Of a stretch of DNA of 64,000 nucleotides, positions 2,988 to 32,735 are shown one piece after another. A model generated the notes under the pieces. That model had not been told where the DNA came from and did no database searches. It saw only the letters and a list, made by a program, of their open reading frames with translations. Source of the stretch: Vicinamibacterales bacterium (lineage in GTDB: Bacteria; Acidobacteriota; Vicinamibacteria; Vicinamibacterales; JAMQPK01); contig DASZHO010000200.1 in the NCBI GenBank assembly GCA_035937795.1, positions 8,323-72,322 of the forward strand, written 5' to 3'. The first letter of the stretch is position 1; each line of letters opens with the position of its first letter. The translations under genes were made by a program, and so were the position numbers.

Positions 2988-3104
2988 TCGAAGGACGTGC
3001 GACAGTTCCGGCGATCCACGCCCGATGGCGACGCGTTGATGTATACTCTTTTTTCGCCATCATCGTCGCGTTCCACCAGCGGACCGGCTGCCCCCGCTTG
3101 ACAC

Positions 3105-4280: not shown

Positions 4281-4291
4281 TCTGTTGACGC

Positions 4292-6580: not shown

Positions 6581-6613
6581 AGTCCATCGACTTGCGCGGG
6601 GCAGCATACGGCG

Positions 6614-9126: not shown

Positions 9127-9130
9127 GTCT

Positions 9131-10168: not shown

Positions 10169-10272
10169 CTCCTTCTCGTCGGTGTGCAATGTTCTATATT
10201 GGCCGTGCGGATGGTGACGTATGAGCTCGACGCATGTGGATTTCGGGCCTTTCGACTTGAAGGACGAACCCT

Positions 10273-11739: not shown

Positions 11740-11755
11740 GGCCGAATTATACCGA

Positions 11756-12862: not shown

Positions 12863-12889
12863 GCTGGGTTAACCAATGCCTATCATATT

Positions 12890-12919
12890 ATCTATCCGTG
12901 TCTCATCTATCCGTGTCTC
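12890..12919. repeat. Perfect 15-bp tandem direct repeat ATCTATCCGTGTCTC x2 in a divergent control region
   Basis: Read directly: 12890-12904 and 12905-12919 are identical. The repeat lies in the AT-rich gap between ATG 12862 (minus) and the first plausible plus-strand start, GTG 12913. Confidence 0.9.
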
Positions 12920-14766: not shown

Positions 14767-16454
14767 GCCAGACTGATCGAGCGGTCGGGGAGATCCCCGG
14801 CGGAGGATGGCGCGAATTGCTCGCGGTTCTGGCGGGCGGCACGGCGCTCGCGGTCTGTCTCACATATCCGTTTGCTCTGCGGATGGGCGACGCCGGGCGG
14901 GTCGATTCCACTGACGGCGAGTTCTCGATCTGGAACGTCGCCTGGGTGGCCAGGACGCTGGTGGTCGATCCCCGCCACGTGCTCGACGCCAATATCTTCT
15001 ATCCGCACCTCAGAACGTTGTTGTATTCGGAGACGAACCTCGGCGCCGGCGCGCTTGGCATCCCTGCCTATTGGGCGACCCGCAATCCCATTTTCGCCAC
15101 CAACTTTGTCTTTCTCCTCTCCCTTATTCTGGGCGTCACGGGCGCGTACTATCTGGTTCGTTATCTCGTCCGCGACCGCCGAGGGGCCGCCGTTGCCGCG
15201 ATCTGTTTCGGTTTCTGTCCCTACGTGTTCGCCCACACGCCTCATATCCAACTGTTGATGACGGCAGGTCTGCCGTTCAGCATGCTCGCGTTTCACCGGG
15301 CTGCCGATCTGCCATCGGCACGTCGCGGCATCGTATTGGGTCTGTCGATGGCCGCACAGACGGCGTTTTGTGGATACTACGCGGTATTTGTAATCTTGCT
15401 CGTCGGATTCGCAACGCTGGCCGTTCCAACCCTGCGCGGATCGTGGAGCAACCTGCGTTACTGGAGGATGATCGCGGTCGCGGCGCTGACCGCCGCGCTC
15501 GTCGTGGCACCCCTCGCGGTTCCGTATCTGCAATTTCAGCGCGAGAGCGGGTTTCAACGGGCTCTCGGGGAAGCCACTCGTTACTCCGCCAACTTGACCG
15601 CATATCTGGCGTCCAATGCCATGGCACACGGCTGGATGCTGTCACTCCTTGATCGCTTCGAGCATTGGAGCGAGGTTCTCTTCCCCGGTTTCGTCGCGAC
15701 GCTCGGCGGCGCGGCTGGATTGGTGCTGGCGTGGAGAAGCGGCGGCCGGCTGAGGGAAGTTGGCGTCATTTACGGCACCATCACGCTGCTCGCATTCTGG
15801 GCATCGTTCGGACCGCAAGCCGGGCTCTACACGGTGATGTACTGGGTCATCCCGTTCGTCACCTCGCTGCGGGCGCCGGCGCGTTTTGGCCTCATCGTCG
15901 CGCTCGGACTCGCAGTGTTGACGGGCGTGGCGGTGCGTGAGGGGCTTGCCCGTGTCAAATGGCCATCGGCGGCTGGCGCGCTGCTGGTGATCGTCGCCGC
16001 GGCCGATCTCGCCGTGCCGCTGGGCACGGGCATCATGCGCGAGGTTCCGCCCCTCTCTCCGGCATACTCGCTCATGAGCAAGCTGCCTGCGGGACCGGTC
16101 ATCGAGCTGCCGTTTTGGTCGAGCGGCTCGGAACTGCACGGACACGCCCGGTACATGCGCTATTCAACCTCGCACTGGATGCCGCTCGTCAACGGCTACA
16201 GCGATTACATTCCTCCGGACTTCATCGAATCGGCGGCAAGAGTTCAAGGTTTTCCAAGTCGTGATGCCTTCCAGGCTCTTGCGGCGCGGCACCCCAGGTA
16301 CGCCGTGTTTCACATGCTGGCCTACGGCGACCAGGATCGCGCCGCGGTATCGGCGAAGCTGAATGAATTTGCGCCCTACCTTGCGCCGCTCTATATCGAT
16401 GATGAAACGCGGCTCTATGAGATTCTGAAATTTCCGCCGGCGCCCGCGCCATGA
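14763..16454 (+). CDS. Polytopic membrane protein (family not recognised; GT-C-like by context)
   Basis: ATG 14763 overlaps the upstream stop (ATGA). About 12 hydrophobic segments; loop RVDSTDGEFSIWNVAW. Confidence 0.55.
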   Translation: MSQTDRAVGEIPGGGWRELLAVLAGGTALAVCLTYPFALRMGDAGRVDSTDGEFSIWNVAWVARTLVVDPRHVLDANIFYPHLRTLLYSETNLGAGALGIPAYWATRNPIFATNFVFLLSLILGVTGAYYLVRYLVRDRRGAAVAAICFGFCPYVFAHTPHIQLLMTAGLPFSMLAFHRAADLPSARRGIVLGLSMAAQTAFCGYYAVFVILLVGFATLAVPTLRGSWSNLRYWRMIAVAALTAALVVAPLAVPYLQFQRESGFQRALGEATRYSANLTAYLASNAMAHGWMLSLLDRFEHWSEVLFPGFVATLGGAAGLVLAWRSGGRLREVGVIYGTITLLAFWASFGPQAGLYTVMYWVIPFVTSLRAPARFGLIVALGLAVLTGVAVREGLARVKWPSAAGALLVIVAAADLAVPLGTGIMREVPPLSPAYSLMSKLPAGPVIELPFWSSGSELHGHARYMRYSTSHWMPLVNGYSDYIPPDFIESAARVQGFPSRDAFQALAARHPRYAVFHMLAYGDQDRAAVSAKLNEFAPYLAPLYIDDETRLYEILKFPPAPAP

Positions 16455-16465
16455 CTGGCAGTGAG

Positions 16466-19108
16466 CTATCGCGTGGCGATCCAGACGCCCAGAAATCGGT
16501 CGTCCTGACTCGTGGCGTCGACATCCGACGGACGAAACCCGGAGAGCGACCGAACCGTCAAGGGCGTTCCCGGTCCTTCATGCACTGGAATCTCGATGAC
16601 GCTTTCCTCGCTCGGCGCGAGGTCCAAATTGCGAAGCCAATCCCCGCTTTCCAGGGTGACCTGGTTCTTGACCGCGCCGTTTCGTACGAACAAGTGGAGC
16701 GTTTCGCGAACATCGGGCGCGATCACGAAGTCCGCGTCCGCTCCGCGGCCAATCCAGGTGCCGTCGGGCTCGACCCACACAGGCCCGCTGAGGTGAAACA
16801 TGACCGCAGAGCCATAACGGGCCCCGTGCCCGGCTTCAGAGCCGCTCTCGATTCGATCGCGGGGCGGGAGTACTGACACCGCACGAAGCTCCACATTGCG
16901 CAGGCTGCCTCTTGCGGCCTCATCGAGGTCGAGCTCGAGCGCCGCGACAGCAACCGGAAGCGACACCGTGTTTTTCCAGGTCGTTGAAAGGGATGCAACA
17001 GTCCAATCCCCGATTGCGGGAGAGTCGGGATCGGTCATCACCCGAATTCGTCCAGCCGGATGACCGCGCACGGTACCGGTGATTTCATAGATGCCCGGTG
17101 GCAGGTGCACCATTTTCGACCATTCGCTGCGATTGGCTGTTACAAGCCGCGCCAACGGAATCTCGGCGGGTAAGCTCTGCAACGGGATTCGCCGAAACGG
17201 TCGGTACTCCAGCGCCAGTTGACCGCTGCCGTTGTCGTACTGGCGTAGAACCGAAGCCCCGCCGGAAGATGGGATCGGCGCAGCGGCATGATTGGTGCGC
17301 CAGACGAGCGACACCGCACAGGTAATTGTCACTTGCATGGCGAGGCTCAGAACCACAAGCGAGCTCCCCCAACGCTGGACCGCCATCGTCGCGGCCATCG
17401 CGGCCGCGACCGCGGCGAGCCAGATCGCTGTTTGGCCCACGACGACAGATGGCGGATTCTGGAACAGGCTCGGGAGTGCCCTGGTCAGATCGACCGCCGG
17501 CAGCAGCCACGCAGCCAGGCGTGAGCTGCCATCGCGGAAGTTGAATACCAGCTCGCCGCGAGCGACCCACGTCATCGTGGCGGTAATCAGCACACTCGTG
17601 AACAACGCGCCGACGCCAAACGCTCGCGCGGCCGCTCCGCGTATGTCGGCGAACCACGTCGCTGTCGGGATCGCAAGCACGAGGGTGAGCGGCACCAGGA
17701 ACCTCGCTGGGGCACTGGTGCCGCCCCACCACATATAGAAGAACGTGACGACCACGAAGTACGGCAGCGTGACGATGAGCAACTCCACGGCGAGCCGCCG
17801 CGGACCACGCCACAGCATGACCGCCAGCCCTGCAAACGCACACAAGTAGATCGGCGCATTGGGCAACAATCCGAACTGCTGATCGAACAAGAGACCCGGG
17901 GCCCCGCGCACGATATTGCCGGCGGCGGTTTCCAGCGTTCCGCCATAAGGCGCCGATGGATTCGGAGTTCCATAAATGATTTGGAAAAAACACAGCCAGC
18001 CGACAGCGCTCACCGCGGGTACGGTCACCAGCGCCGCCAGACGTTTGGCGCGGCCGTGTTCGCTGAGTAGCCGGCCGGCAACCACCAGCGCGCAGCAAGC
18101 CGCGAGTATCGCGAACCGCGAGTGAAGCCACGGCAGCATCGCCAGCGCCGCGCCGACGGCAAACAGCCAGCGCGGCTGGCGCGCACGGGCGCTGACGAGC
18201 GGAACGATTCCGGCGAGCACCAGCGCAGCGGCCGGTCCGTCAGGAAACACAGTGCCCGTCAGGAAAAAATACGGCACGGAGAGGCTCACCCCGGCCCACC
18301 CGAACCAGCTGGCGGCCTGATTGCGCGTGACCTGCCAGGCAACATACCAGGCCAGACCGCTGGCGAACGCGCTCAGGGCAAGCAGCGCACCGACCACGCC
18401 ATGATAGCCAAACGCCGCAAAAAACGGCGCGACGAGCAGCGGAAGGCCGGGCGCGTGGATCGAGTAGATGGCGCCGTTTTTTCCGCGAGCCCGATAGTCT
18501 GGCTTCAGGGTGGTCGTCGAGTACGCGCGGTAGTCGCGCTGGAGATGATTGTTTTCAATCTGCAGATCTCGATCCTCGAGCAGGCTCTGCGTGATGATCA
18601 GGTAATGAGGCTCGTCGCCGTTTGGGTGCTGCGGTGCGGTGGCCCAGACACCGAGACCGTATACGACAAGGCCGATTCCTCCAGCCAGGAGCGCTGAACC
18701 TGACGCCGAATGCAATCTGTTTTGCAGCGGGCGGAGCGCTCCCCGAACCAGCGGCGCCGCAAGCATGGCCCCGATCGCAATCCAGACCCACACCGCGACA
18801 TGGCCTGTCCAGACAAACACCGACAACGGCAACCGGACGGGCAGCCACGGCAGCAGGAGCATCCCCGACAGCCACAGGGGAGCCGACCCGCGCGCGGTTG
18901 GGCGCACCTCGTACGCGAGAACCGCGGCCACCAGAAAGGCCGCCAGGAGCCAGATGGGAGCGGGAAGGATGCCAACGTATCGCGCGCGATTGCCGGTGTC
19001 GAGAAACGCGATTGCGCCGAACGAGACCCAGAACGCAGCGGCGGCGCAGACCAGCGCGCAGGTTGCGGCCGCGGAGATGTGTTTACCCGTTGCGTGCAGA
19101 AGAGCCAC
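16466..19108 (-). CDS. Large polytopic membrane protein with ~280-aa C-terminal beta-rich domain, GT-C-like (inference)
   Basis: GTG 19108. N-terminal ~600 aa polytopic with NGDEPHYLIITQSLLEDRDL and YSIHAPGLPLL. The C-terminal soluble region ends FRPSDVDATSQDDRFLGVWI. Confidence 0.6.
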   Translation of the reverse strand: MALLHATGKHISAAATCALVCAAAAFWVSFGAIAFLDTGNRARYVGILPAPIWLLAAFLVAAVLAYEVRPTARGSAPLWLSGMLLLPWLPVRLPLSVFVWTGHVAVWVWIAIGAMLAAPLVRGALRPLQNRLHSASGSALLAGGIGLVVYGLGVWATAPQHPNGDEPHYLIITQSLLEDRDLQIENNHLQRDYRAYSTTTLKPDYRARGKNGAIYSIHAPGLPLLVAPFFAAFGYHGVVGALLALSAFASGLAWYVAWQVTRNQAASWFGWAGVSLSVPYFFLTGTVFPDGPAAALVLAGIVPLVSARARQPRWLFAVGAALAMLPWLHSRFAILAACCALVVAGRLLSEHGRAKRLAALVTVPAVSAVGWLCFFQIIYGTPNPSAPYGGTLETAAGNIVRGAPGLLFDQQFGLLPNAPIYLCAFAGLAVMLWRGPRRLAVELLIVTLPYFVVVTFFYMWWGGTSAPARFLVPLTLVLAIPTATWFADIRGAAARAFGVGALFTSVLITATMTWVARGELVFNFRDGSSRLAAWLLPAVDLTRALPSLFQNPPSVVVGQTAIWLAAVAAAMAATMAVQRWGSSLVVLSLAMQVTITCAVSLVWRTNHAAAPIPSSGGASVLRQYDNGSGQLALEYRPFRRIPLQSLPAEIPLARLVTANRSEWSKMVHLPPGIYEITGTVRGHPAGRIRVMTDPDSPAIGDWTVASLSTTWKNTVSLPVAVAALELDLDEAARGSLRNVELRAVSVLPPRDRIESGSEAGHGARYGSAVMFHLSGPVWVEPDGTWIGRGADADFVIAPDVRETLHLFVRNGAVKNQVTLESGDWLRNLDLAPSEESVIEIPVHEGPGTPLTVRSLSGFRPSDVDATSQDDRFLGVWIATR

Positions 19109-19141
19109 CCTCGGCTTGAATCATAGCCACACCATGCGGCG

Positions 19142-20701
19142 CTAGTCGAGAGGGCAGAAGTAGACGCCGTCGATGATCGGTTTCGCGTCGCCGCAAGCCG
19201 TCCGCGAGATTTTGACGGCCACGTCGCGATGAGAGGCCACTTCCTGGTCGTAGGAATGAATCCGCCGGAAATCGTCAGCGGCCACCACGATTCGCTCGTT
19301 GGTGAAGAACGTGATGTAGTACGCGATCCAATAATCGGACACCGCGTAACGAATATCGCGAGCGTCGAGCGCACGAATGATGAGGATCTTGTCGGCGATT
19401 CGAGGATGATGGCTGTATACACTGTAGATGCGCGCGTGCGCGACGCCCGAGACGAGAGCCCAGCATAGCAGCACGGCGATCTCGGTTCGCCGGATCCACG
19501 GCCGCGATTCCACCGACAAGCCCCAGGCGGCCAGCCCCACGGCGCCCACAAGGGAGAGCAGGTCGTAGCGCAAGACCGTCACATCACCACACCGGCTGAC
19601 CGCGATCGCAAGTGCCGAAATGGCGCCGACCAGGATGAGATACGCGCAGAATTCGTATCGCGTCCACCAGTCGGCGCGCCGGCTCGCGTGCGCGATAATG
19701 CGCGCCGCAAACAGCACCATTGTCGCTCCGAGCACGATTCCGCTCCACGCGAGCCCTTGGCGTGAATCGCTTTCGAGCCCGAGGTCGAGAACGGGCAGTG
19801 GTGCCGTCCCGAACAGCCGTGACCAGTGCACGGTGACAAGGCTCGCCACGCCGCCGAGTACCGTGCCGGGATCGAAACAGAATTTACCGATCGCTTCGAT
19901 CAGGTCGTTTCCGCGTAAGGTGATCATGCTGGCGTCGGTACCGGGTCCGGCGGCCGACGCCCACTGCCGGAGGAATTGCGAGACGAGCCACACCTCGGCG
20001 ACCACGCGCAACACCTGAAAGGCGCCGACGAGCTCGGCCTTGGCTTTGCCGCGCCAGCGTCCGCTGATGAGCTCCAGCAACACAATCGCAAGCGCGCCAT
20101 AGGCGGTGAATTCGCGATGCAGAAAGCCCACGCCGAGTACGACGCCGAACCACACTGGGCGCGTCCGCAGCAGCCAGAGCAGGAGCACGTAGAGGAACGG
20201 CTCGACGTTCCCGCCGCTCGCGGCGAGCAGTTCCGCGGCGGTGCCGGGCGGGGCGAGTACGAAGAACAAGCTGGCGATGAGCGCCAAGGTCGGACTGAGG
20301 CCGCTTTCCCGATACAGCAGCGTGACGAGCAGCAAGCCGATCGCCACGTTGATGACGAGGAGCGGCAATTTGAGCGCCGCCACCGACACGCCGGCGACGA
20401 GAAACACGGGCGCGGCCAGCCAGGCCTCGACCCCCAGAAGGTAGTTCTGCCCGTAGATGAAGAGCGGAAACGCCCGGCCTTGGATGAGATGCTTTGCCAT
20501 AAGACCGATCACGCCCTGATCGGCGTGAAACGCCAGTTGCGGCTGAAACACGATCATCGCCGAGCGGAAGGCGATCAGTACGAACGCCGCGGACCACGCA
20601 AGAACAAGCCCGCGCGGCACGCGAGTGAAGCCTCCAGCGGGATCATCCGATAAGACTCCGTGGGCAGGTACCGTCGCGGCCGGCATGGGCAGGAGAATCA
20701 T
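19142..20701 (-). CDS. Polytopic membrane protein, ArnT/GT39-83-like (inference)
   Basis: ATG 20701 with AAGGAA 7 nt upstream. ADQGVIGLMAKHL...IYGQNYLLGVEAWLAAPVF resembles N-terminal regions of ArnT-type enzymes (from memory, unverified). Confidence 0.6.
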   Translation of the reverse strand: MILLPMPAATVPAHGVLSDDPAGGFTRVPRGLVLAWSAAFVLIAFRSAMIVFQPQLAFHADQGVIGLMAKHLIQGRAFPLFIYGQNYLLGVEAWLAAPVFLVAGVSVAALKLPLLVINVAIGLLLVTLLYRESGLSPTLALIASLFFVLAPPGTAAELLAASGGNVEPFLYVLLLWLLRTRPVWFGVVLGVGFLHREFTAYGALAIVLLELISGRWRGKAKAELVGAFQVLRVVAEVWLVSQFLRQWASAAGPGTDASMITLRGNDLIEAIGKFCFDPGTVLGGVASLVTVHWSRLFGTAPLPVLDLGLESDSRQGLAWSGIVLGATMVLFAARIIAHASRRADWWTRYEFCAYLILVGAISALAIAVSRCGDVTVLRYDLLSLVGAVGLAAWGLSVESRPWIRRTEIAVLLCWALVSGVAHARIYSVYSHHPRIADKILIIRALDARDIRYAVSDYWIAYYITFFTNERIVVAADDFRRIHSYDQEVASHRDVAVKISRTACGDAKPIIDGVYFCPLD

Positions 20702-20865: not shown

Positions 20866-21921
20866 ATGGGAGCCATGAAACACAAATTTGCGCCCGGCCT
20901 TGTCACGTTTGCGGTGGCGGCGATCACCACCGCGTGCTCGAGCAGCAATCCACTCCAGCCGACGAACTCGTCGGCGGCATCCACGTCGGTCTCATTTGTC
21001 GCGCCGCACGCGACGACGCCGGCAGGCGACTCGCAGATCCCGTGGAGAAGCCAGCCGATCACCATCACGGTCGCCAACGGAGCCGCCACGGCGAGCGGCG
21101 CTTCAACCTACACAATTGAGGTGGCCACCGACGCCGGCTTCAGCAACATCGTCTTCTCGAACGGCAACGTTCCGCAGGGAAGCGGTGGCCAGACGGGTCT
21201 GGCGATCGGCACGCTTCCGGGCGACACCACCTACCACTGGCGAGTCAGAGTAACGACCGGCGGTGTCACCGGTCCGAATTCGGCGGCGAGTGCGTTCTCG
21301 ATCGGAACTCAACCTACCGTGCAGACGCCCGCGCCGTTGTCTCCTGGCCAGAACGGGATGGGCGCGTCCCCAACGACGACACTGACGACGCAGAACGCTC
21401 AGACGTCCGGCCCCGTAGGTGCGATCGTGTATCGATTCCAGGTCGCCGATTCGTCGGCATTCACAAATATTGTGTTTGATAGCACGACTGCGCAGCAGTC
21501 GGGCGACCAGACGTCCATCGCGGTGACCGCCAGATTGACGGAGGGCGCGACATACTACTGGCGCGTTCAGGCCATCGATTCAACTGACGGTATTACGACA
21601 TCCTTCTCGACGGTTTTTGCGTTCCAGATGCCCGTTGGTGTGCTCTTCGATCATCCGTGGACCGGCAGGGTGGAGACCGTCTTACACGATCTGCTCGCCA
21701 GCGGCCTCGCCGGGCCGGATGGTTCGAACGGGCAGGCCGTCGTCGACCAGATGAACGCGATGGGCGGTATTTTTGCGGGCGCTGTCTTCCAGCCGCATCA
21801 CAACGGAATCGGAGACCCCACCTTCGGCTTCGGATGGTTCTACGTGTCGTTCGTTCCGATCGGCAACGGGACAAGCTTCTATCAGATCGTCGAATATGGG
21901 GCGCCGCCATTCGGCGACTAA
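20866..21921 (+). CDS. Lipoprotein P1: Ser/Thr/Pro linker, two 'YYW' repeat modules, conserved C-terminal domain (unknown function)
   Basis: ATG 20866 (the ORF opens at 20713, across the promoter). MGAMKHKFAPGLVTFAVAAITTAC is a signal peptide with a lipobox-like Cys. Two ~95-aa repeats end in TYHWRVRV and TYYWRVQA. The last 93 aa are conserved with 32881..34038. Confidence 0.75.
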   Translation: MGAMKHKFAPGLVTFAVAAITTACSSSNPLQPTNSSAASTSVSFVAPHATTPAGDSQIPWRSQPITITVANGAATASGASTYTIEVATDAGFSNIVFSNGNVPQGSGGQTGLAIGTLPGDTTYHWRVRVTTGGVTGPNSAASAFSIGTQPTVQTPAPLSPGQNGMGASPTTTLTTQNAQTSGPVGAIVYRFQVADSSAFTNIVFDSTTAQQSGDQTSIAVTARLTEGATYYWRVQAIDSTDGITTSFSTVFAFQMPVGVLFDHPWTGRVETVLHDLLASGLAGPDGSNGQAVVDQMNAMGGIFAGAVFQPHHNGIGDPTFGFGWFYVSFVPIGNGTSFYQIVEYGAPPFGD

Positions 21922-21930
21922 CGGAGCCCG

Positions 21931-22009
21931 CGTTCGGGCGGCCGCCTGCTGCGAGCACCTCGCGGCAGACGGCCGGCTCGAACGGCCCGGCGGGATAGAG
22001 ATCGGCGAC
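21931..22009 (-). pseudogene. Relic of a second xylose-isomerase-like TIM-barrel gene (paralogue of 23971..24774)
   Basis: Blocks of 11 nt, 28 nt (21953-21980 identical to 24310-24337) and 17/18 nt are colinear with 24288-24396. The minus-strand translation VADLYPAGPFEPAVCREVLAAGGRPN aligns in frame with VADLHPDLLFLFENHDGASSEPAVCREVLLAADRPN. Confidence 0.6.
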
Positions 22010-22159
22010 CTTCTTTCGACCTGCCTTTCATTTTCTATTTCCATAAAATAAAGGGGCCTTGTGGACATTGTTTCGAAATAATTGCGCCACCCATGATAAT
22101 CCATGCTATCCTTGCGCCATTCGTGGCTTCAGGGTCCTCCTGTTTGACCAGACAACGCA

Positions 22160-22699
22160 TTGGCTTCTGAACAACGGGCGCGAGGATCGCGCCGGCGGGG
22201 ACGGCCTCCGAAGTTCGACCGGCCGAGCCAGCTTGTCGCGCTCACGCTGCCCACGCAAGTGATCCGGGGGCTGCGAAAGGTTCACTCCGATTTGGCGTGG
22301 GCCATCGTGGCGCAATTCGAAAAACGCGCGCCGACGAGCAACGGCAACCCCGGCGCGGAAAGCGGGCTGGTCAGCATCGGGCCACGCGATGCGTTCCTGA
22401 TCGTGATCAATCGAGCGCTCTTCAAGCGGCTTCCCGGCGTGAATATCGTGCCTCTGAGCGCCGATCGCGCGTTTCTGGCTCTTGAGCCCGGATGCGGTTT
22501 CAGCGATTTGGAAGTGGCAGTCAGGGATCGGCTGGAGAGCTCGGCCGTCGCTGCGTCGGAGCGCCGCGCATTGCTGCATTTCCGCAAACAACTTCGCGCG
22601 TGGCGGCGCAATCGGGCACTCCGTTTCCACACTCGCACAATCATCGTAGTCGAGCGCTTACGCTCTCACGAGCGGAGGAGCGAGAGGCAGGAATCATGA
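22160..22699 (+). CDS. Small Arg-rich protein of unknown function, translationally coupled to lipoprotein P2
   Basis: TTG 22160. N-terminus RARGSRRRGRPPKFDRP. Third-position G+C is about 74% in my hand count of the first 50 codons (coding-like). The stop overlaps the downstream ATG (ATGA, 22696-22699). No family recognised. Confidence 0.55.
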   Translation: MASEQRARGSRRRGRPPKFDRPSQLVALTLPTQVIRGLRKVHSDLAWAIVAQFEKRAPTSNGNPGAESGLVSIGPRDAFLIVINRALFKRLPGVNIVPLSADRAFLALEPGCGFSDLEVAVRDRLESSAVAASERRALLHFRKQLRAWRRNRALRFHTRTIIVVERLRSHERRSERQES

Positions 22700-23886
22700 C
22701 GACAGACACTCATTTCATGCGGCGGCGTCCTTTGGCTCCGGTCACGCCTCAGCGCGTCCTGAAGCAAGTCCTCTCTCTGACGGCCGCAGCGTGGTTGCTC
22801 GCGTCGGTGGCCTGTTCGAGCACTCCGTTGGCGCCCGCCGCGTCGGTCTCCACGCCGACCGCGCAGGCGCCGGCAAGCGGCGCGCAGATCGCGAACAGTG
22901 CGCAGCCGGTCACACTGGTCGTGCAAAACGCCACCGTGACCCAGAGCGCCACCGCCGTGACCTACAACTTCGAAGTCGCGGCCGACGCGGCATTCGCCAC
23001 CAAGGTGCAGACCAAACCCGGCGTGGCCGCGGGCAGCGGCGGACAGACCAGCATCACCCTCGATCCCTTGCCCGCGAGCGCGAGTTACTACTGGCACGCG
23101 CAGGCGATTGCCGGCGGCACGACGGGCCCCTTCAGCGCCACCGCTAATTTCACGATTGGGTCGGCGATAACCATCAATGCGCCGGCGGCCGTCGCCCCCG
23201 CGAACGGCTCGACCGTGATCAACCCCCCGACCCTGACCGTCGCCAATGCGATGCGCACGGGGCCGGTCGGCGTACTCGCGTACCGCTTCGATATTTCTAC
23301 GAACGCGGATTTCTCGACCCTCACCACGCAGGGGAGCGTCGGCGAGGGGGCCGGCCAGCAGACCTCATTCACGCCGGGCTCGCCCCTTGCGAACGGTGTG
23401 AAGTTCTACTGGCGCGCGACCGCGATCGACCAGATCAACCTGGTGACGAGCCCGGCGAGCGCCACCGCAACCTTCACGACGATCCAGTTCCCGGGTGTGG
23501 CGGCGGGCATCGCCGCTAGACTGGGTATCCTCCTCTGGCCGGGCGCTGTGCCGACCGGCGTCAATGGGCATGCCTTTCTTGGTAATAACTGCAATGGAAG
23601 CCCTAACTGGGCAATCGCGACCTGTCATTCCCCCACCGCCGGCGTCGACTTCCAGAGTCCGACGATCGAAATGCTCCGGGTTTTCGATCTGCTTGATCGA
23701 GGTTACGATCCACAAAGCGCCATCAATTGGATGTTCAACAACGGCTATCCAACGTCGGCCGCATGGTATCCATATCCGAAGTTCGTCATCGGTTTTCCGT
23801 TTGTCTATATCTCCGCCCGCGACGGGAATTTCGGCACAGGGGGGATTTGGGACGTCCAGATTAGCCTGGGATTGAGAGAGTGGTAG
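22696..23886 (+). CDS. Lipoprotein P2: two 'YYW' repeat modules and a divergent Cys-containing C-terminal domain
   Basis: ATG 22696 preceded by GAGGAGCGAGAGG. ...LTAAAWLLASVAC is a signal peptide with lipobox-like Cys. Repeats end SYYWHAQA and KFYWRATA. Confidence 0.75.
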   Translation: MTTDTHFMRRRPLAPVTPQRVLKQVLSLTAAAWLLASVACSSTPLAPAASVSTPTAQAPASGAQIANSAQPVTLVVQNATVTQSATAVTYNFEVAADAAFATKVQTKPGVAAGSGGQTSITLDPLPASASYYWHAQAIAGGTTGPFSATANFTIGSAITINAPAAVAPANGSTVINPPTLTVANAMRTGPVGVLAYRFDISTNADFSTLTTQGSVGEGAGQQTSFTPGSPLANGVKFYWRATAIDQINLVTSPASATATFTTIQFPGVAAGIAARLGILLWPGAVPTGVNGHAFLGNNCNGSPNWAIATCHSPTAGVDFQSPTIEMLRVFDLLDRGYDPQSAINWMFNNGYPTSAAWYPYPKFVIGFPFVYISARDGNFGTGGIWDVQISLGLREW

Positions 23887-26077: not shown

Positions 26078-27031
26078 TTACGCCAGAGCGAGCTGTTTCA
26101 TCCATTTGACGTTGTAGCACGCCGCCTCGTCCTTGATGCGGCCGCCATGGTAAGCCGCCACCATCTCGCGGATAGCCGTCTCCACATCCTTTTTCGGGTG
26201 AAAGCCCGCCGACAGCAGGCGGTCGGAGCAGATCGCGTACGATCGCGGATCGTCGGACGGGAGCAACTTGACCTCGGCCGACACGTAGCGGCGCACCAGC
26301 GCGGCGATGTCGCTCACCTTCAGATTCTCGAAGCCCGCGTTGTAGATCCCGGCGAGGCGGTGCTCGAGCGCAAATAGATACACATCGACAAGATCATCGA
26401 TGTGGATGTTCGGGCGGGTTTGCTCGCCGCCGAGCACCGTGATGCGGCCCGTTCCGAGCGCCTGCATCGTGAGCAGGTTGACCACGACGTCCAGGCGCAT
26501 TCGTGGCGAATAGCCGCAGACGGTTGCAGGACGGATGATCGTCGTCGTCATGGCGCCGGCATAACTCATGTACACGCGCTCGGCGACCATCTTCGTCTTG
26601 TTGTACTCGGAAAGCGGAAACAATTCGAGATCCTCGGTCACGCGAGGCTCCGATTTCACGCCGTACACGCTCGCCGAGGATGCGAAGACGAACTGTTTCA
26701 CACCGTGGCGCGCAGCCCGGTCGGCCAGGCGCATCCCGGCAAGGACGTTCACGTCCCACGAGAGATAGGGATTGAGATCGACGGACGGATCGTTGGCGAT
26801 GTTGGCCAGGTGAAAGACCGTGTCGAACGTCGAGAGGTCGTAGTCGTCTATCGTGCGCACGTCGGCGGTCCAGAACGTCAACCTTGGATCGGACGGCAGG
26901 TGGTTGCCGAACCATTGCGTGTCCAGAATGGTGACCCGGTGTGGCGTGTGGGCCAGGAGCGCCTGCGTCAGCATCGTGCCGACGTACCCGCAGCCGCCAG
27001 TCACAAGAATGTTCACGGGCGCGCCAATCAA
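26078..27031 (-). CDS. NAD-dependent epimerase/dehydratase (extended SDR)
   Basis: NILVTGGCGYVGTMLTQALL (GxxGxxG) and SEYNKTK (YxxxK). TTG 27031 overlaps the upstream stop (TTGA); GTG 27016 is an alternative. Confidence 0.85.
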   Translation of the reverse strand: MIGAPVNILVTGGCGYVGTMLTQALLAHTPHRVTILDTQWFGNHLPSDPRLTFWTADVRTIDDYDLSTFDTVFHLANIANDPSVDLNPYLSWDVNVLAGMRLADRAARHGVKQFVFASSASVYGVKSEPRVTEDLELFPLSEYNKTKMVAERVYMSYAGAMTTTIIRPATVCGYSPRMRLDVVVNLLTMQALGTGRITVLGGEQTRPNIHIDDLVDVYLFALEHRLAGIYNAGFENLKVSDIAALVRRYVSAEVKLLPSDDPRSYAICSDRLLSAGFHPKKDVETAIREMVAAYHGGRIKDEAACYNVKWMKQLALA

Positions 27032-27612
27032 ATGGCGTCCTGACGGTGGGTGTTCAAGTACTGATCGAACCAGTAGTGGAGAAGGATTTGATGAGCGGAC
27101 TCCGCCCAGCCGTAGCGTTGAAGCGGCACGTAGAAATTCAGATCCCCGAGCCCCCGCGACCGGTTGTCGGGGCGCTGACCCGAAAGCGTCACCACCTCGA
27201 GGCCCATGCCCCGGGCGGTCTCGAGCGCCCGCACAATATTAGGCGAGTTGCCGGAGCTGCTGATGGTGACGAGCAGATCGCCCTTTCGGGCCAACCGCTC
27301 GAGGGGCAGCGAGAACACTTGATCGTAGGAGAGATCGTTGCTCGTGGCGGTGATCATGGCGGCATCGTTCAGCGCCAACGCGCGCAGGTGGCCGTTCTTG
27401 CACGCGTCGGCGGCCATGTGGCTCGCCATCCCTGCGCTTCCGCCGTTGCCTATGATAAAAAGACAGCCGTCGCGTTCGTGCAGCTGATGCGTCATGGCCA
27501 CCCAGCGGCTCAGGGCCACGGGCGGCGACAGGTCGGAGGCTTGGCGATCGGTGACCGCGAGTCCTCTCAGCCCTTGTGCAATCGTCTCGACATACTCGGC
27601 CCAGGTTTCCAT
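27028..27612 (-). CDS. gmhA: SIS-domain phosphoheptose isomerase (GmhA-like)
   Basis: ATG 27612. LFIIGNGGSAGMASHMAADA, LLVTISSSGNSPNIVRALE. 194 aa, typical of D-sedoheptulose-7-phosphate isomerases. Confidence 0.8.
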   Translation of the reverse strand: METWAEYVETIAQGLRGLAVTDRQASDLSPPVALSRWVAMTHQLHERDGCLFIIGNGGSAGMASHMAADACKNGHLRALALNDAAMITATSNDLSYDQVFSLPLERLARKGDLLVTISSSGNSPNIVRALETARGMGLEVVTLSGQRPDNRSRGLGDLNFYVPLQRYGWAESAHQILLHYWFDQYLNTHRQDAI

Positions 27613-27614
27613 CG

Positions 27615-29135
27615 TCAGATGACAATCTTTGCGATCGTGAGGAACTCCTGATCGGAGATGGGCCGCTCATTGCAGCGGCGTTGGGCCATGGCTGCGGCCG
27701 CGATCCCACCCGCCAGCGCCACCATGGATGCCGGCAGACGCAGGCACGCCGCAAGGCTGCTCAGCGCGAAAAGCGCGTCGCCACAGCCGATGGTGTCGAC
27801 CACGCTCGTGCTGAGCGTGGGCAATGTGAACCGATCGCCGTGAATGCGCACCCTCGCGCCATTGGCGCCGTCGCTGACCGATAGTTGGTCGCATTGGAGC
27901 AGCCCGGAGATCCGCTCGAGCAGTTCCGGCAATGCGAGACCCTGTTGGTGCAGACACAGTTCCGCTTCGATTCTGTTCAGGCTGTAATAATCGGCGCCCA
28001 CGTACTTCGTCGGCAAATTGTACCCGTAGTTGCTCGAATTGACCTGCGCCATTGCGGCGACGAACGCGCGGCGGCCGCGCGCGAGCTGTCCATTGAGCAC
28101 GGCAACGTCGAGAAGGCCGTGTCCGAAGTCGGCCAGCAGCACCAGGTCGTAATCGTCGAATGCCGGCAGCCGTTCCCGCGTGACACCCTCGAGAGCCAAC
28201 TGCTTGGACTCGAACAGCGGAAAGCCCGTGTCCTTGTCCACGAACCGCGTCTTCACCAGCGGGCTCGAAGCGAGCGACGTCACTCTCACGTTCGGCGGCA
28301 CGGCCGCTTGATCGAGCGCGTTGGTAAAACAATCCACCGTGGCCGCAAAGCTCGAGAGATGCAGCGCGATGATGCCCGCGCCGCCGATCTGCCGGACCCG
28401 CGCAGTCTCGAGGCCCGCGACACAGCGCGACTTCTGCGAAATGTTCTCGACGGTGACGTCGACCCATTCGTCCACGATTGTCTCGCCGATGAGGCAGACC
28501 CGCAGCCGTCCGGCATCGACCAGAAAGCTCTTCACCTGCTCGAGCGTGAAGCCAAACGCCGAGACGTCCCGGAACATGACGCGGTCGTTTCGCAGCAGCG
28601 GGTTGTCCTGGACCGCTTCGGACGACGACAGCAGGAAATGCGAGAGCTTGGTCGACGAATACGTTTCGCCGGACGTGAAATGGATGCGGCCGCCGAGCGC
28701 TTCGATCAGTTCCTTCTCGTGCGAGATGTTCGACGTCTTGTCGAGGAGCAGGTTCGCGTATTCCGGGCCCTTGATGTACACGTCCGGCTGCAGCGCACGG
28801 ATGGCGTCGAGCGCCGATGGCTCATCCACGATGGCGACATAGTCAACGATTTCCAGCGCCGCGATCTGGCGCGCCCGGGCGTTCTCGTGGAGCGAGACGG
28901 CCCGCTTCTTCGCGATGTGGCTGTCGCTGGTAATCGTGACCACGAGCACGTCGCCCAGCGATTTGGCCTCTTCGAAGTGCGTGAGGTGCCCGATATGCAC
29001 CAGGTCGAAGGCGCCGTGGCAGAGGATGATCTTCTTGTCGCGGAGACGCTCGCGAATCTTCGGGAGCTCCTCGAGCGTCACGATCTTGTCGCGCTGATCG
29101 ACGCGATCGACGGTGCCGGTACGGCTTGGCGTCAT
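27615..29135 (-). CDS. Bifunctional heptose kinase / nucleotidyltransferase (HldE/RfaE-like) with inverted domain order
   Basis: ATG 29135 overlaps the upstream stop (ATGA). The N-terminal block IILCHGAFDLVHIGHLTHFEEAKSLGDVLVVTITSD is cytidylyltransferase-like. The C-terminal block ending DTIGCGDALFA is PfkB/ribokinase-like. Confidence 0.75.
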   Translation of the reverse strand: MTPSRTGTVDRVDQRDKIVTLEELPKIRERLRDKKIILCHGAFDLVHIGHLTHFEEAKSLGDVLVVTITSDSHIAKKRAVSLHENARARQIAALEIVDYVAIVDEPSALDAIRALQPDVYIKGPEYANLLLDKTSNISHEKELIEALGGRIHFTSGETYSSTKLSHFLLSSSEAVQDNPLLRNDRVMFRDVSAFGFTLEQVKSFLVDAGRLRVCLIGETIVDEWVDVTVENISQKSRCVAGLETARVRQIGGAGIIALHLSSFAATVDCFTNALDQAAVPPNVRVTSLASSPLVKTRFVDKDTGFPLFESKQLALEGVTRERLPAFDDYDLVLLADFGHGLLDVAVLNGQLARGRRAFVAAMAQVNSSNYGYNLPTKYVGADYYSLNRIEAELCLHQQGLALPELLERISGLLQCDQLSVSDGANGARVRIHGDRFTLPTLSTSVVDTIGCGDALFALSSLAACLRLPASMVALAGGIAAAAMAQRRCNERPISDQEFLTIAKIVI

Positions 29136-29845
29136 TTGCCGGCGGCTCCCCACTCGAGACCGCACAGCAGCTTCAGCGTTCGCATCACATCGATGGCATT
29201 CTTCATCCGAAAGGCCTTGCTTTCGCCGCGTTCGCGTTCGGTCAGGTCCATGGGCACCTCGATGAACGTTTTCGTCAGGCGCAGAGCCCTGACGAGCACT
29301 TCCGCCTGGAAGCCATAACCGGTCGACTGGATCGTCAGGCTCTTCAGTACTCCGGCTCGGTGAATCTGCAGGCCGTTATAGTACTTCAGTCGGCGGCCGG
29401 TGATCACATTCACGATGAACGTGAACGTCTTGGAGATGACCGTCCGCATCAGCGGGCGCGAATGCCACATATCGCGCGTGTAGCCGATGATGATGTCGGC
29501 ATCTCCGACGTGAGCAAATAGCTCGCCGAGCGTCGCCGCGCCCCAGGCGTTGTCGCCGTGGACCATGACTGCGTGGGCGAGCGACGCGGCCTCCACGCCG
29601 CGGCGGTACGACCAGCCGAAGCCCATGTTCCGTTCGTTCTTCAACAGCTGTACGTTCGAGAAGCGAGACAAAGACGACGCCACGAGATCGGCGGTATTGT
29701 CGCGGCTGCCGTCGTCGATCACCAGGATCTCATAGGGAAGCGATAACGGCGCCAGCGCCGTTGTGACGTTCTCGAGAGTCGCCAGGATGTTTTCGTACTC
29801 GTTGTACGCGGGAATGATCACGGACAGGGACCGTGCCTGGTTCAT
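29132..29845 (-). CDS. Glycosyltransferase family 2, DPM1/GtrB/ArnC-like (candidate polyprenyl-phosphate sugar synthase)
   Basis: ATG 29845. LSVIIPAYNEYENILATLENV...ILVIDDGSRDNT. About 237 aa with no obvious TM segment. Confidence 0.8.
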   Translation of the reverse strand: MNQARSLSVIIPAYNEYENILATLENVTTALAPLSLPYEILVIDDGSRDNTADLVASSLSRFSNVQLLKNERNMGFGWSYRRGVEAASLAHAVMVHGDNAWGAATLGELFAHVGDADIIIGYTRDMWHSRPLMRTVISKTFTFIVNVITGRRLKYYNGLQIHRAGVLKSLTIQSTGYGFQAEVLVRALRLTKTFIEVPMDLTERERGESKAFRMKNAIDVMRTLKLLCGLEWGAAGK

Positions 29846-29981: not shown

Positions 29982-32735
29982 ATGCTGACGCGATGCCGGC
30001 TGCCGCTGCTGACTCTGCTGACCGGCCTTGTCTTCTGGGCGGCGTCAGGAATCGTGCGTCCGGCCCTGCACGCGGGTGACGGCCTCTCGGCGCGGTATTA
30101 CGACAATCCAAACTGGAGTGGCTGGCCGGTCTTTTCTGCCGTCGACGCCGAGCCATCGACGGCGCAGATCAGGCGCCGCTGGCACGATACGCCGCCGGCG
30201 GCGTTCAGTGTCATCTGGACGGGCTATCTGAGCGTGGCGCGGACCGGTTTCTACAAGTTCGCCACGACGTCCGATGATGGCTCGCGTTTGTTCATCGATG
30301 ACCAGCTGATTGTCGACAACGCCGGTGCTCACGCGAACACCATGCGGTCTGGAGGCGTGCGGTTGAACGCAGGCGCGCACCAGGTCCGCCTGGAATTCTT
30401 CCAGGCCGGCGGTGATTTCGGTCTGAATTGGTCCTGGGCTCGCGACACCGGCAGCTTCAGGAGTATCCCTGCCTGGGCGCTTTCGCAGCGGCGAGTGCAT
30501 TACCGGACAGTGGCGGCCGCACACCTGGTCGATCTTGCCCGTTCAGTCGCTCCTTTCGTGGTGCTCTTCGGAGCCATCTGGTGTGTGGTCGTCATTCTCG
30601 ATCGTGCTGCAGGAGTCACCGCCCTCGAGACAGGTTTGTTCGCTGCGGCGGGATATGCCCTCCCCCTTCTCCTCATCTTCCATTCGATCGGATTCTGGGG
30701 CCGCGGCATCGTGGATCAAGAAGGAGAAGGATTCGTCCTGAACTATCTGGCCAAGCGACCGCTCTTCGCGACCATTTTCGACCCGCGCCTGACGGAATAT
30801 GGCTCGTTTCAGGCTCGTGAACTGAGCTACCTCTTCGACTATGTCGATGCCAGGGTGTTCGCGGCGTTGCTCGACCGGCACGTTCTGTCCTTCATTCCTG
30901 TCAGCGGCGCGCTCGGTATCATTGCGGCTGCCGCGATCTATCTCTACGGCAGCCGCAAAGTCCTCCGCCTCGACGGCATCACCGCTGGTCTGCTGCTTTC
31001 GGTCTTCCTGAGTTCCATCGTCACGCAGGCATCGACGGCAGTCCTATATCGCTCGGCGAAAATTGTGCTCACGGTCGCGCTTCTCGCGTTTCTGTTTCAG
31101 TTGACGTATCTGCTTCGCGAGAACGGGACGCGGCGCAGGTCGGTGGGGCAGCTCGCAAGCCTGTTCCTCCTCGGGTTCGTGATGTCGGTGAGCGATCGAC
31201 AGGGCTTCTTCTATCTCGTGACCGCGACGGGAATCGTCGCAATCTTGTGGATGAAGCAGGACATCCAGGCCGGGCACTCGCAAAGCAGGTACCGATGGGT
31301 CGTTGCGACTGGTGTGTGCGCGATCGCCACCGCGATCCTCTACAACAACCTGCTCGCACCAGTGATCATTCGGTGGACGAACGGGTACGGGCCTGACTTC
31401 TCGTATCAGCACATTCCCTTCAGCCGGCTCGACTGGACGCTGACTCAACACGCCTTTCAGATGTTTACGGCGCAGGTGAGCTTCTTCTTCGGCAATGCGC
31501 CCTTCATCGTCGTGTGCGCCGTGGGCCTCGCGTTTGGCGTCGGCTCCAACAGGCGGCTCTTGGCAAGCGATGCCCTTCTTGTGCTGCTGGCTTCTTCTGC
31601 AGCGTTGGTCGGGCTCCTCGGCCTGATGATCATGCGTCATCCTCCTGTGTACACAATCCCCGATCACGCGCTCTGGTACTACACACTGACCATGCAGGCC
31701 GTCCTCCTGTTTGGCGCCACGCTGTGCGTCAGCCAGGCAAACGGTGCGCGCGACGGGGGGAGAAACCTTGTAGTCTACGTGCTGTTGATGCTGATGATCG
31801 TCAGCAATGTCTTGCATTACGAGGCGCAGCGGAAGGTGATGATCGACTCCATGGAGTGGCTCGGGAGTCAGTACGTCTCATCACAGAGTCTGTCGCGGCA
31901 GTTTGAGGCTACGGAGGGCGGCGAATCGGCCGGCGCCTCGTCGCGGTCGTGGATTCGGCTTGGCCCCGCTGGCGCAACTGCCGAGCTGCCGATTCAACAA
32001 ACAGATTTTCTCGAGATTGTTCGAGTCGCGCACGCCACGCTCGTGGGCCGGCTGCCGCTGGCAGATGCTGGTGGTCCCTACTGGCGCAAGCTCGGTGCCT
32101 TTCTGGCCGGCCCGACCTCGCCGTTGAACGACCCCGCCCAGATCCCGCCGGTCGTGGAAGCATTCCAGTCGATTGGCATTCGCCAGATCGTGCTGGAGCG
32201 AGATCGCTATCAAAATCCGGAGCTGGCACAGGAAACCGCCGAGGCCGCGCTGGCGGCAACCGGGTCGATCCTCAGGACGTGGGACGATGGCAGAGTACTG
32301 ACTCTCGATCTTGTGAATGATCGCGTGGCATGGCCGGATGAGCAGGTCTCGCGCCGTATTCCCCCGCGCGAGTTACAGGTTACCGCCCGGACAGACTCGA
32401 TCCGGATCGACCTCGATCGACCCCACGCTGTGCGCAGTATCCGCATCGAGCTCACGGAACGAGATCTCGTTGGCTACCCGCGCACGCTGATCTACCCGCA
32501 CACGCTCAGCATCGAATCAGTTGACGGGGCGCAGGTTCGAACGCTGACGAATGCGAGTCCGCTCGGGGCAGTCATGAGGGCCCTGCTCATGCAGCCCGTG
32601 CCGGCGTCGATAGAGATCGGACTGCCGCCAAACCGCTGTGGGACGCTCGTGCTGCGGCAGACCGGTCAAGACCGCTCGTGGAACTGGACTGCCCACGAGT
32701 TGATGTTGTTCGAGACAGACGAAAAAGCGCAGTAG
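29982..32735 (+). CDS. PA14-domain / polytopic membrane protein with large soluble C-terminal region (paralogue-type of 4292..6580)
   Basis: ATG 29982. Signal-anchor, then a PA14-like block GLSARYYDNPNWSG...VIWTGYLSVARTGFYKFATTSDDGSRLFIDDQLIVDN...LEFFQAGGDFG. A polytopic body follows, then ~280 non-hydrophobic C-terminal residues. Confidence 0.65.
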   Translation: MLTRCRLPLLTLLTGLVFWAASGIVRPALHAGDGLSARYYDNPNWSGWPVFSAVDAEPSTAQIRRRWHDTPPAAFSVIWTGYLSVARTGFYKFATTSDDGSRLFIDDQLIVDNAGAHANTMRSGGVRLNAGAHQVRLEFFQAGGDFGLNWSWARDTGSFRSIPAWALSQRRVHYRTVAAAHLVDLARSVAPFVVLFGAIWCVVVILDRAAGVTALETGLFAAAGYALPLLLIFHSIGFWGRGIVDQEGEGFVLNYLAKRPLFATIFDPRLTEYGSFQARELSYLFDYVDARVFAALLDRHVLSFIPVSGALGIIAAAAIYLYGSRKVLRLDGITAGLLLSVFLSSIVTQASTAVLYRSAKIVLTVALLAFLFQLTYLLRENGTRRRSVGQLASLFLLGFVMSVSDRQGFFYLVTATGIVAILWMKQDIQAGHSQSRYRWVVATGVCAIATAILYNNLLAPVIIRWTNGYGPDFSYQHIPFSRLDWTLTQHAFQMFTAQVSFFFGNAPFIVVCAVGLAFGVGSNRRLLASDALLVLLASSAALVGLLGLMIMRHPPVYTIPDHALWYYTLTMQAVLLFGATLCVSQANGARDGGRNLVVYVLLMLMIVSNVLHYEAQRKVMIDSMEWLGSQYVSSQSLSRQFEATEGGESAGASSRSWIRLGPAGATAELPIQQTDFLEIVRVAHATLVGRLPLADAGGPYWRKLGAFLAGPTSPLNDPAQIPPVVEAFQSIGIRQIVLERDRYQNPELAQETAEAALAATGSILRTWDDGRVLTLDLVNDRVAWPDEQVSRRIPPRELQVTARTDSIRIDLDRPHAVRSIRIELTERDLVGYPRTLIYPHTLSIESVDGAQVRTLTNASPLGAVMRALLMQPVPASIEIGLPPNRCGTLVLRQTGQDRSWNWTAHELMLFETDEKAQ

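Follow-up and report, generated by a model that had tools for sequence, protein, structure and literature searches.

In the SusE- and SusF-type proteins of Bacteroidetes, a lipid anchor and an N-terminal Ig/FN3-like spacer precede distal carbohydrate-binding domains, which vary by locus and have recognisable folds of the carbohydrate-binding module (CBM) kind; their genes sit in glycan-dedicated loci, the catabolic polysaccharide utilisation loci (PULs), together with SusC and SusD. In phage tail and lysis proteins, the C-terminal position is normally held by a targeting domain. RbmA of Vibrio cholerae binds exopolysaccharide directly through its second fibronectin type III (FN3) domain, FnIII-2 (PMC5605196), and, in protein O-glycosylation, every known O-oligosaccharyltransferase (O-OTase) of the PglL, PglS, TfpO and TfpM types carries a Wzy_C domain, the gene for its cognate acceptor lying immediately upstream (PMC9829042). 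The present analysis concerns three lipoprotein genes, here called P1, P2 and P3, that lie within a glycan locus on a stretch of DNA of 64,000 nucleotides from contig DASZHO010000200.1 (‘the window’). The window has a G+C content of about 63% and matches a metagenome-assembled genome (MAG) of Vicinamibacterales (Acidobacteriota), in which P1 is annotated as VGZ27_20160 and P3 as VGZ27_20210.

Acidobacteriota such as the Vicinamibacterales are abundant in soil, and little is known of how they construct their envelopes and exopolysaccharides; a literature search on this lipoprotein family in Vicinamibacter and Acidobacteria found nothing. The three proteins belong to a large family in which small C-terminal ‘heads’ of four or more unrelated families are mounted on three types of stalk (FN3-FN3, ‘N’ and N-FN3), and one of these head families is also found in phage tail and lysis proteins. 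The reading put forward here, tentatively, is that these proteins are envelope-anchored stalks that would present ligand-binding, probably glycan-binding, heads and work together with the glycan machinery encoded beside them.

Architecture of the three lipoproteins

P1, P2 and P3 are open reading frames (ORFs) on the + strand, as an earlier note on this DNA had called them (Table 1). The family, which that note took to be private to the locus, is large: homology searches matched at least 163 proteins with P1, at least 205 with P2 and at least 152 with P3, and, among the matches listed, all of those named by source come from Vicinamibacterales.

Each protein begins with a hydrophobic leader that ends in a cysteine (C24 of P1 in the context ‘TTAC’, C40 of P2 in ‘SVAC’ and C20 of P3 in ‘FAGC’), followed by a tether; Ser, Thr and Pro make up about 60% of the next 25-39 residues. 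These elements were read off the translations, and the lipobox calls are pattern based; set against the lipobox pattern [LVI][ASTVI][GAS]C, P1 and P2 deviate at position -3, and P3 was counted as fitting. The cysteine is conserved among homologues: C40 in at least 90% of the P2-family alignment, its counterpart in every row of the P1-family alignment that has an intact N-terminus, and a hydrophobic run with a lipobox-like Cys in 262 of the 334 retrieved homologues of P1, P2 and P3 that formed the sample for domain classification. The earlier description of a leader, a lipobox-like Cys and a Ser/Thr/Pro-rich linker in all three proteins therefore stands.

Two of the database starts differ from those used here. 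The NCBI record of P1 (a 100% match) begins at M4, giving 348 aa, and that of P3 begins at M46, giving 340 aa and losing both the leader and the ‘FAGC’ lipobox. The 385-aa start of P3 is preferred because it restores that lipobox and agrees with homologues of the N-terminal domain, which have a conserved Cys after a hydrophobic leader. This N-terminal domain of P3 (‘N’, about 120 aa) is a separate unit that was absent from the earlier description. Of the 334 homologues, 67 use it as an alternative module of the stalk, and its only Pfam match is a weak one to Big_2 (E 0.062); its four conserved Cys support an extracytoplasmic location. P1, P2 and P3 are accordingly predicted, from these features of their sequences, to be membrane-anchored extracytoplasmic lipoproteins.

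Structures were modelled with AlphaFold2 for P1 (alignment A4) and P2, both built on clean family alignments; the full-length alignment of P3 (A1) forces non-homologous tails onto the domains of that protein, and P1 was modelled in its stead. Mean pLDDT was 85.3 for P1 and 88.9 for P2, and low values were confined to the leader and tether (residues 1-35 of P1, below 50; residues 1-42 of P2, mostly low).

P1 and P2 each have two modules of about 100 aa between tether and head, and P3 has one. The five show pairwise identities of 32-43% (E 1e-8 to 1e-23), and the motifs Y-x-F-[EQ]-V-A..D..F, GQT and YYW[RH] can be aligned across all of them, in agreement with the repeats and motifs first noticed; a tblastn search of the window found no additional copies. 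In P1, the Pfam families Ig_Rha78A_N (PF25788; 38.5 bits against a gathering cut-off of 27.4) and PhoD_N (PF16655; 33.2 bits against 30) are matched, and fn3 and Pur_ac_phosph_N also match modules; the modules of P2 and P3 score less than the cut-off (20.9 and 20.5 bits) but are 32-43% identical to those of P1. In the models of P1 and P2 each module forms seven strands, mostly with pLDDT above 90, and a Foldseek comparison of these models with the PDB returned tandem FN3 pairs at probability 1.0 (among them LAR, NCAM, DCC and neogenin), as well as V. cholerae RbmA and the Fn3 modules of Clostridium thermocellum CbhA. The ‘YYW[RH]V’ stretch is a strand common to these FN3-like families. The ‘YYW’ modules are thus ordinary FN3-type beta-sandwiches and not a new fold and, given the Pfam matches and the resemblance of the models to tandem FN3 domains, need no new name. 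The ‘generic FN3/Ig-like feel’ that they had given at first sight was correct; the weight then placed upon them was misplaced, for the informative parts of these proteins are the heads.

Heads and their exchange between stalks

The three proteins had been described as each ending in a related C-terminal domain, which is true of P1 and P3, whose 95-aa heads (CTD-A) are 76% identical, and not of P2, whose 133-aa head (CTD-B) has no similarity to CTD-A (nothing by BLASTP; hhalign probability 2.3%). Seven kinds of head, A to G, were distinguished among the classified homologues; A, B and C are mutually unrelated, and D, E, F and G form one superfamily by hhalign. The FN3-FN3 stalk carries head A in 30 proteins, B in 134, C in 74, D in 5, E in 4, F in 2 and G in 5; the N stalk carries A in 1, C in 27, D in 1, F in 11 and G in 11; and the N-FN3 stalk carries A in 1, C in 5 and F in 6.

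Profile searches of PDB sequences found no credible relative for heads A, B, C or D-G (the highest-ranking matches being HLA-DR beta, E 0.07, and ribosomal eL18, E 0.6), and no head matched a CBM family. The invariant residues of CTD-A and CTD-B are mainly Trp, Tyr and Phe, with Asp, His, Glu and Arg. CTD-B is a mixed helix/strand domain in which invariant Trp and Tyr are abundant and which bears the motif ‘FDLLDRGxDP’; its pLDDT is 84-98 over most of the domain. The heads would make up a set of uncharacterised small extracytoplasmic domains, for which the predicted structures of P1 and P2 are confident.

Head C is the second commonest in the sample (about 180 aa; 106 proteins, including P0031, P0039, P0085 and P0115). 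It occurs on FN3-FN3 and N stalks and in two syntenic glycan loci (L001 and L002, below), carries the motifs ‘WPD’, ‘QYTLW..N.NG.W’ and ‘ERSNVV’, and has no Pfam or PDB relative.

CTD-A in host lipoproteins and phage proteins

The model of CTD-A consists of two helices followed by a four-stranded sheet (pLDDT 77-92, dropping to 50 at the last residue), and its invariant residues, in the numbering of P1, are F261, D262, H263, W265, G267, E270, F308, Q309, H312, W324, F325, Y326, V327 and Y339. The domain is rare. Only about 24 genuine clusters emerged when 1.84 billion representatives were scanned exhaustively with HMMER; they are 44-75% identical, nearly all have the domain at the extreme C-terminus, and no remote tail of further relatives was seen. 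In alignment A4, the C-terminus of a CTD-A protein is in most cases ...PPxG[DN]; the rest have short C-terminal extensions.

Some of these proteins are not lipoproteins of the kind found in the window. In P0092, an endolysin-like segment (phrog_894, E 3.4e-7) precedes CTD-A, and the gene lies in a T4-like baseplate cluster (L013), directly after gp27-like and gp5-like (hub/lysozyme) genes and before homologues of gp25, gp6, gp7 and gp8, a position that, in the gene order of T4, is presumably that of the small gp5.x genes. An identity of the N-terminal part of P0092 as a peptidase M15 was considered and set aside, having no Pfam support; the ‘endolysin’ family phrog_894 alone was matched. The baseplate cluster itself is a possible lead to phages that infect Vicinamibacterales-like hosts.

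A scan of 185,579 GTDB species representatives, made with CTD-A-derived patterns only and thus speaking to CTD-A and not to the range of the FN3 stalk, found only two CTD-A loci, both in one MAG labelled Elusimicrobia (CAZRIP01). At one of them (L007) the domain forms the C-terminus of the final ORF in a block that includes genes for a head-maturation protease and a tail/hydrolase protein, and at the other (L006) it lies among several PHROG families; in each, several PHROG families of no assigned function are present. Because both loci look phage derived, the Elusimicrobia label may reflect the phage and not the host. CTD-A also ends leaderless proteins, whose N-terminal halves look like carboxypeptidase-regulatory-type sandwiches, with no family match.

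CTD-A is, then, a portable C-terminal module common to host lipoproteins and to phage tail and lysis proteins, and, of the roles that the earlier note had suggested (substrate, scaffold or glycan-binding component), its reuse in the latter favours binding over that of a substrate.

The glycan locus and related loci

Family genes adjoin polytopic GT-C/Wzy_C-type or glycan genes in 8 of the 11 independent loci on which linkage was judged, the neighbours counted being PMT_2, PA14+PMT_2 and Wzy_C proteins, DUF6311-like or orthologous polytopic proteins, small GT2 enzymes and a trio of GT4, methyltransferase and epimerase genes. The earlier note had made its case depend upon homologues being linked to glycan loci elsewhere, and such linkage was found in L001, L002, L008, L010, L011 and L014. 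In L008, a second locus of the same MAG, genes for PMT_2, a GT2 of 239 aa, an M-M-A lipoprotein (where M denotes FN3) and a Wzy_C protein of 680 aa lie together, the M-M-A gene being co-oriented with the Wzy_C gene and 51 nt upstream of it. L011 has a PA14+PMT_2 gene divergent from the gene for an M-M-A protein (P0010), with an M-M-B gene two genes away; in L010, a PMT_2 gene lies three genes from a family member. Three family members in L002 are interleaved with a GT2 gene and orthologues of the 546-, 563- and 880-aa proteins of the window, two lie in the syntenic glycan locus of a 7-Mb genome (L001), and L014 has a CTD-A protein and an M-M-B lipoprotein beside a GT4-methyltransferase-epimerase trio like that of the window. 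Several loci carry two or three members each.

Several members that lie outside glycan loci (L010, L012 and L005) adjoin MacB_PCD/FtsX-type permeases and PadR regulators. Permeases of this type are abundant in Acidobacteria, and the adjacency could reflect that abundance alone or a second functional context.

Within the window, Pfam-identified neighbours establish the glycan-locus setting in which the three genes had originally been placed: there are genes for GT2 and GT4 enzymes, a Wzx-like flippase, Wzy_C, LPG_synthase_TM, GmhA-like SIS, HldE-like and UGM-like (flavoenzyme) proteins, epimerases and a deacetylase. The six polytopic proteins (519-917 aa, with 7-17 hydrophobic segments) have near-nil Pfam results (PMT_2 at E 0.004 in one and Wzy_C at E 0.017 in another, both below the cut-off, and PA14 in a third); they have orthologues in related loci and are weakly supported candidates for unannotated GT-C-like enzymes. 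Two of them, of 880 and 917 aa, have C-terminal regions of about 270-300 aa past the last hydrophobic segment. The 880-aa protein has a weak Wzy_C match and an orthologue in L002, and the PA14 domain of the 917-aa protein matches the PA14+PMT_2 neighbour of P0010. The GmhA-like gene adjoins that of a 516-aa fusion with a cytidylyltransferase-like N-terminal and a PfkB kinase C-terminal part, which is presumably the reverse of the domain order in Escherichia coli HldE; together they suggest a pathway for a nucleotide-heptose or related sugar feeding the locus.

Between P1 and P2 lies ORF179, which is called by JGI from position 22292 (135 aa). Its protein has no Pfam or PADLOC match and is probably cytoplasmic, and its N-terminus (‘GRPPKFDRPSQLVALTLPTQVIRGLRKV’) may be a DNA-binding motif of the ribbon-helix-helix type. 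In L014 and L011, a homologue of ORF179 (in L014 with 53% identity over 154 aa) adjoins a B-type lipoprotein gene, and a trio of CTD-A protein, ORF179-like gene and M-M-B lipoprotein recurs in the window, L011 and L014.

Table 1. Coordinates of the features discussed (positions in the window unless a locus is named)
Feature	Coordinates	Strand	Description and basis
Six polytopic membrane proteins	10273..20701 and 29982..32735		519-917 aa; hydropathy
Two polytopic membrane proteins divergent from P1	16466..20701	-	519 aa (19142-20701) and 880 aa (16466-19108)
P1	20866..21921	+	351 aa; signal peptide/lipobox, tether, FN3, FN3, CTD-A; ORF
P1 signal peptide, lipobox and tether	20866..21009	+	lipobox Cys24 (codon 20935-20937); Ser/Thr/Pro tether, residues 25-48
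P1 FN3 module 1	21010..21309	+	residues 49-148; Pfam fn3/PhoD_N, seven-strand pattern, Foldseek
P1 FN3 module 2	21316..21633	+	residues 151-256; Pfam Ig_Rha78A_N 1.5e-9 (residues 189-255), model, Foldseek
P1 CTD-A head	21634..21918	+	residues 257-351; alignments A4 and A5, model
ORF179	22160..22699	+	179 aa from TTG; stop overlaps P2 start (ATGA); Arg-rich
P2	22696..23886	+	396 aa; signal peptide/lipobox (C40), tether, FN3, FN3, CTD-B; ORF, 100% match
P2 FN3 modules 1 and 2	22846..23484	+	residues 51-156 and 158-263; Pfam, model, Foldseek, module alignment
P2 CTD-B head	23485..23883	+	residues 264-396; alignments A3 and A6, model
GmhA-like SIS and 516-aa fusion	27028..29165	-	
Small GT2	29132-29845	-	upstream of P3; Pfam
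PA14 + polytopic membrane protein	29982-32735	+	917 aa; directly upstream of P3; Pfam, hydropathy
P3	32881..34038	+	385 aa; signal peptide/lipobox (C20), tether, N domain, FN3, Pro linker, CTD-A
P3 N domain	33046..33414	+	residues 56-178; four conserved Cys; A1 consensus
P3 FN3 module	33421..33729	+	residues 181-283; Pfam Ig_Rha78A_N 6e-4, module alignment
P3 CTD-A head	33751..34035	+	residues 291-385; identity to P1 CTD-A
Wzy_C membrane protein	34004..35218	-	404 aa; O-antigen ligase/polymerase/O-OTase superfamily; Pfam 6e-19; convergent with P3, overlaps P3 end
GT4-methyltransferase-epimerase trio	36200-39185		counterpart in L014
L006, CTD-A locus	175..11028		CTD-A among several PHROG families
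L007, CTD-A locus	2518..10282		CTD-A in last ORF of block; head-maturation protease (phrog_53, 1e-57), tail/hydrolase gene
L013, T4-like baseplate cluster	2720..9822		metagenome contig Ga0613232_00764; gp27-like = phrog_350, gp5-like hub/lysozyme = phrog_430

Proposed role and alternatives

In the arrangement proposed here, the lipid anchor at the lipobox Cys and a disordered Ser/Thr/Pro tether would hold the protein at the membrane, while a rigid stalk, made up of one or two FN3 domains and in some members the four-Cys N domain, would set the distance of the head from it. The stalk would be generic and the small C-terminal head would carry the specificity, heads having been exchanged between stalks in the course of evolution. 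The ligands would be envelope carbohydrate: the product or a lipid-linked intermediate of the adjacent GT-C/Wzy_C machinery, or peptidoglycan. By binding it, the lipoproteins may hold or position the glycan, or retain it, at a set distance from the membrane, and they may face either the periplasm or the cell surface.

Several points weigh against this reading. The binding of carbohydrate is suggested by analogy and residue composition, since Foldseek results for whole models are dominated by FN3: the full P1 and P2 models, compared with the PDB and BFVD, returned FN3 matches only, which swamped the head. The heads have no match in Pfam, NCBIfam, PHROGs, PADLOC or PDB sequence profiles, and the D-H, E, Q and H invariants of CTD-A could equally form a metal or catalytic site. 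The linkage to GT-C/Wzy_C-like genes in 8 of 11 loci is suggestive, being drawn from those 11 loci without a genome-wide background, and three of them (L004, L005 and L012) have no glycan genes near their family members.

A bolder proposal, which we regard as rather unlikely, is that the heads form an unrecognised repertoire (of at least four unrelated families) of small envelope-glycan ‘reader’ domains, shuffled over FN3 or N-domain stalks in step with GT-C/Wzy_C ‘writers’, and that CTD-A has been borrowed by phages to target the same surface structures of the host. Were it true, head sequences would give direct access to phage receptors and to glycan specificity in a soil phylum of which few members have been cultured. 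Heads that read glycans could serve as probes for envelope polymers and, as one of them is shared with phage tail genes, as markers for matching phages to hosts.

The main alternative, itself unlikely, makes the lipoproteins dedicated acceptors, with Wzy_C-type O-OTases or PMT_2-type GT-C enzymes glycosylating their Ser/Thr/Pro/Ala-rich tethers and linkers and with the adjacent small GT2 supplying sugar by way of a polyprenyl-phosphate carrier. The gene order of L008, with GT2 and PMT_2 on the other side of the M-M-A gene from the downstream Wzy_C gene, recalls known O-OTase loci, in which the cognate acceptor gene directly precedes that of the Wzy_C enzyme (PMC9829042). P3 abuts the Wzy_C gene of the window and is preceded by GT2 and PA14-membrane protein genes, and P0010 is divergent from a PA14+PMT_2 protein. 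The co-oriented upstream arrangement is absent, however, from L010, L011 and L012, and P3 and the Wzy_C gene of the window are convergent and form no operon. Tethers that are about 60% Ser/Thr/Pro would suit an acceptor, but such tethers are common in lipoproteins at large, and the linker before CTD-A is near absent in P1. CTD-A proteins end in G-D/N and not in the C-terminal Ser/Thr of TfpO and TfpM targets. Acceptor status would also leave unexplained both the swapping of heads on constant stalks and the conservation of CTD-A at 60-78% identity, with its reuse in phage baseplate and lysis proteins that have no tether. If the proteins were acceptors after all, they would mark a protein O-glycosylation system, of which, to our knowledge, none has been described for this phylum.

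Somewhat less probable still is an enzymatic role, in which each head would be a small periplasmic enzyme (a metal-dependent modifier of glycan or peptidoglycan, for instance) that the stalk holds at the height needed to process the polymer of the locus. D262-H263, E270, Q309 and H312 of CTD-A could make up a metal or catalytic site, and the FN3 types matched here (Ig_Rha78A_N, PhoD_N and Pur_ac_phosph_N) normally flank catalytic domains, according to their Pfam family descriptions. With 95 aa, two helices and a small sheet, CTD-A would nevertheless be a very small enzyme; the invariants of CTD-B are Trp/Tyr, Asp and Arg, with almost no residues of a catalytic type; and neither Pfam nor PDB sequence searches found an enzyme family similar to the heads. 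CTD-A accompanies enzyme-like N-terminal parts in the phage proteins P0092 and P0345, but P0092 already has a lysin domain, which places CTD-A in the position of a targeting domain.

That same position, at the C-terminus of a phage lysin-like protein, is the usual one of a cell-wall-binding domain, and leads to an improbable alternative in which the heads bind peptidoglycan, the lipoproteins being outer-membrane-to-cell-wall tethers (analogues of Lpp, Pal and OmpA) and the glycan locus incidental. A universal ligand would fit the extreme conservation of CTD-A over Vicinamibacterales lipoproteins, the Elusimicrobia-binned MAG and phage-like regions, as well as the loci L004, L005 and L012 with their lack of glycan genes. 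The presence of four or more unrelated head families on one set of stalks argues, however, for diverse ligands; an incidental position fits poorly with genes that recur in synteny among orthologous polytopic proteins; and the heads have no similarity to the LysM, SPOR, OmpA_C, PG_binding or SH3 families.

Polymorphic toxin or bacteriocin-like lipoproteins, with a constant scaffold, a variable toxic C-terminus and a paired immunity gene, would account for the variable C-terminal domains and for the small ORF that follows P1 (ORF179) and one homologue in L004, but are largely refuted by context and very improbable: no conserved downstream partner gene exists across the loci examined (P2 and P3 have none), ORF179 homologues track B-type genes and vary in orientation to A-type genes, toxin and defence families are not matched (PADLOC returning nothing for P1, ORF179, P2 and P3), and the heads (95-190 aa) are aromatic-rich and highly conserved, not diversifying.

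Comparison with known systems

The lipoproteins resemble RbmA in that tandem FN3 domains are encoded within an exopolysaccharide locus, and RbmA structures rank 17, 41, 43 and 46 in the Foldseek results for the P2 model, at 11-13% identity and an rmsd of about 19 Å over the whole model. RbmA differs in being a secreted soluble dimer and not lipid-anchored, in having no head domain and in binding through FnIII-2 itself.

The sequences most similar to the modules are the N-terminal domains of Rha78A rhamnosidases, PhoD and purple acid phosphatases (PF25788, PF16655 and PF16656). In those enzymes the FN3-like domain precedes a large catalytic domain, whereas here it precedes a head of 95-190 aa without the signature of a catalytic family.

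The PilA-TfpO, pilin-TfpM and ComP-PglS pairs share with L008 the placing of a gene for a secreted protein directly upstream of that for a Wzy_C enzyme. There the acceptor is a type IV pilin that has either a C-terminal Ser/Thr or a sequon flanked by a disulfide; in the present family it would be an FN3 lipoprotein with G-D/N at its end. The CTD-A proteins of alignment A4 include no pilin-like sequence, and the pairing is not universal over the loci examined here.

The likeness to phage endolysins and tail proteins that carry a targeting domain at the C-terminus lies in the head: CTD-A likewise stands at the C-terminus after a lysin-like domain in a baseplate cluster. P1 and P3, on the other hand, are chromosomal lipoproteins without a lytic domain, and CTD-A fits no known cell-wall-binding family.

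From the SusE- and SusF-type proteins, finally, which it resembles in its lipid anchor, its Ig/FN3-like spacer, its varying distal domains and its setting in glycan loci, the present family is set apart by a locus that is biosynthetic, by the absence of SusC, SusD and TonB-dependent receptors among the neighbours scanned and by heads that match no CBM family in sequence searches. A spacer lipoprotein with a distal specificity domain in a glycan locus is thus of a known kind; what is new in the family described here is its uncharacterised heads and the sharing of one of them, CTD-A, with phage.

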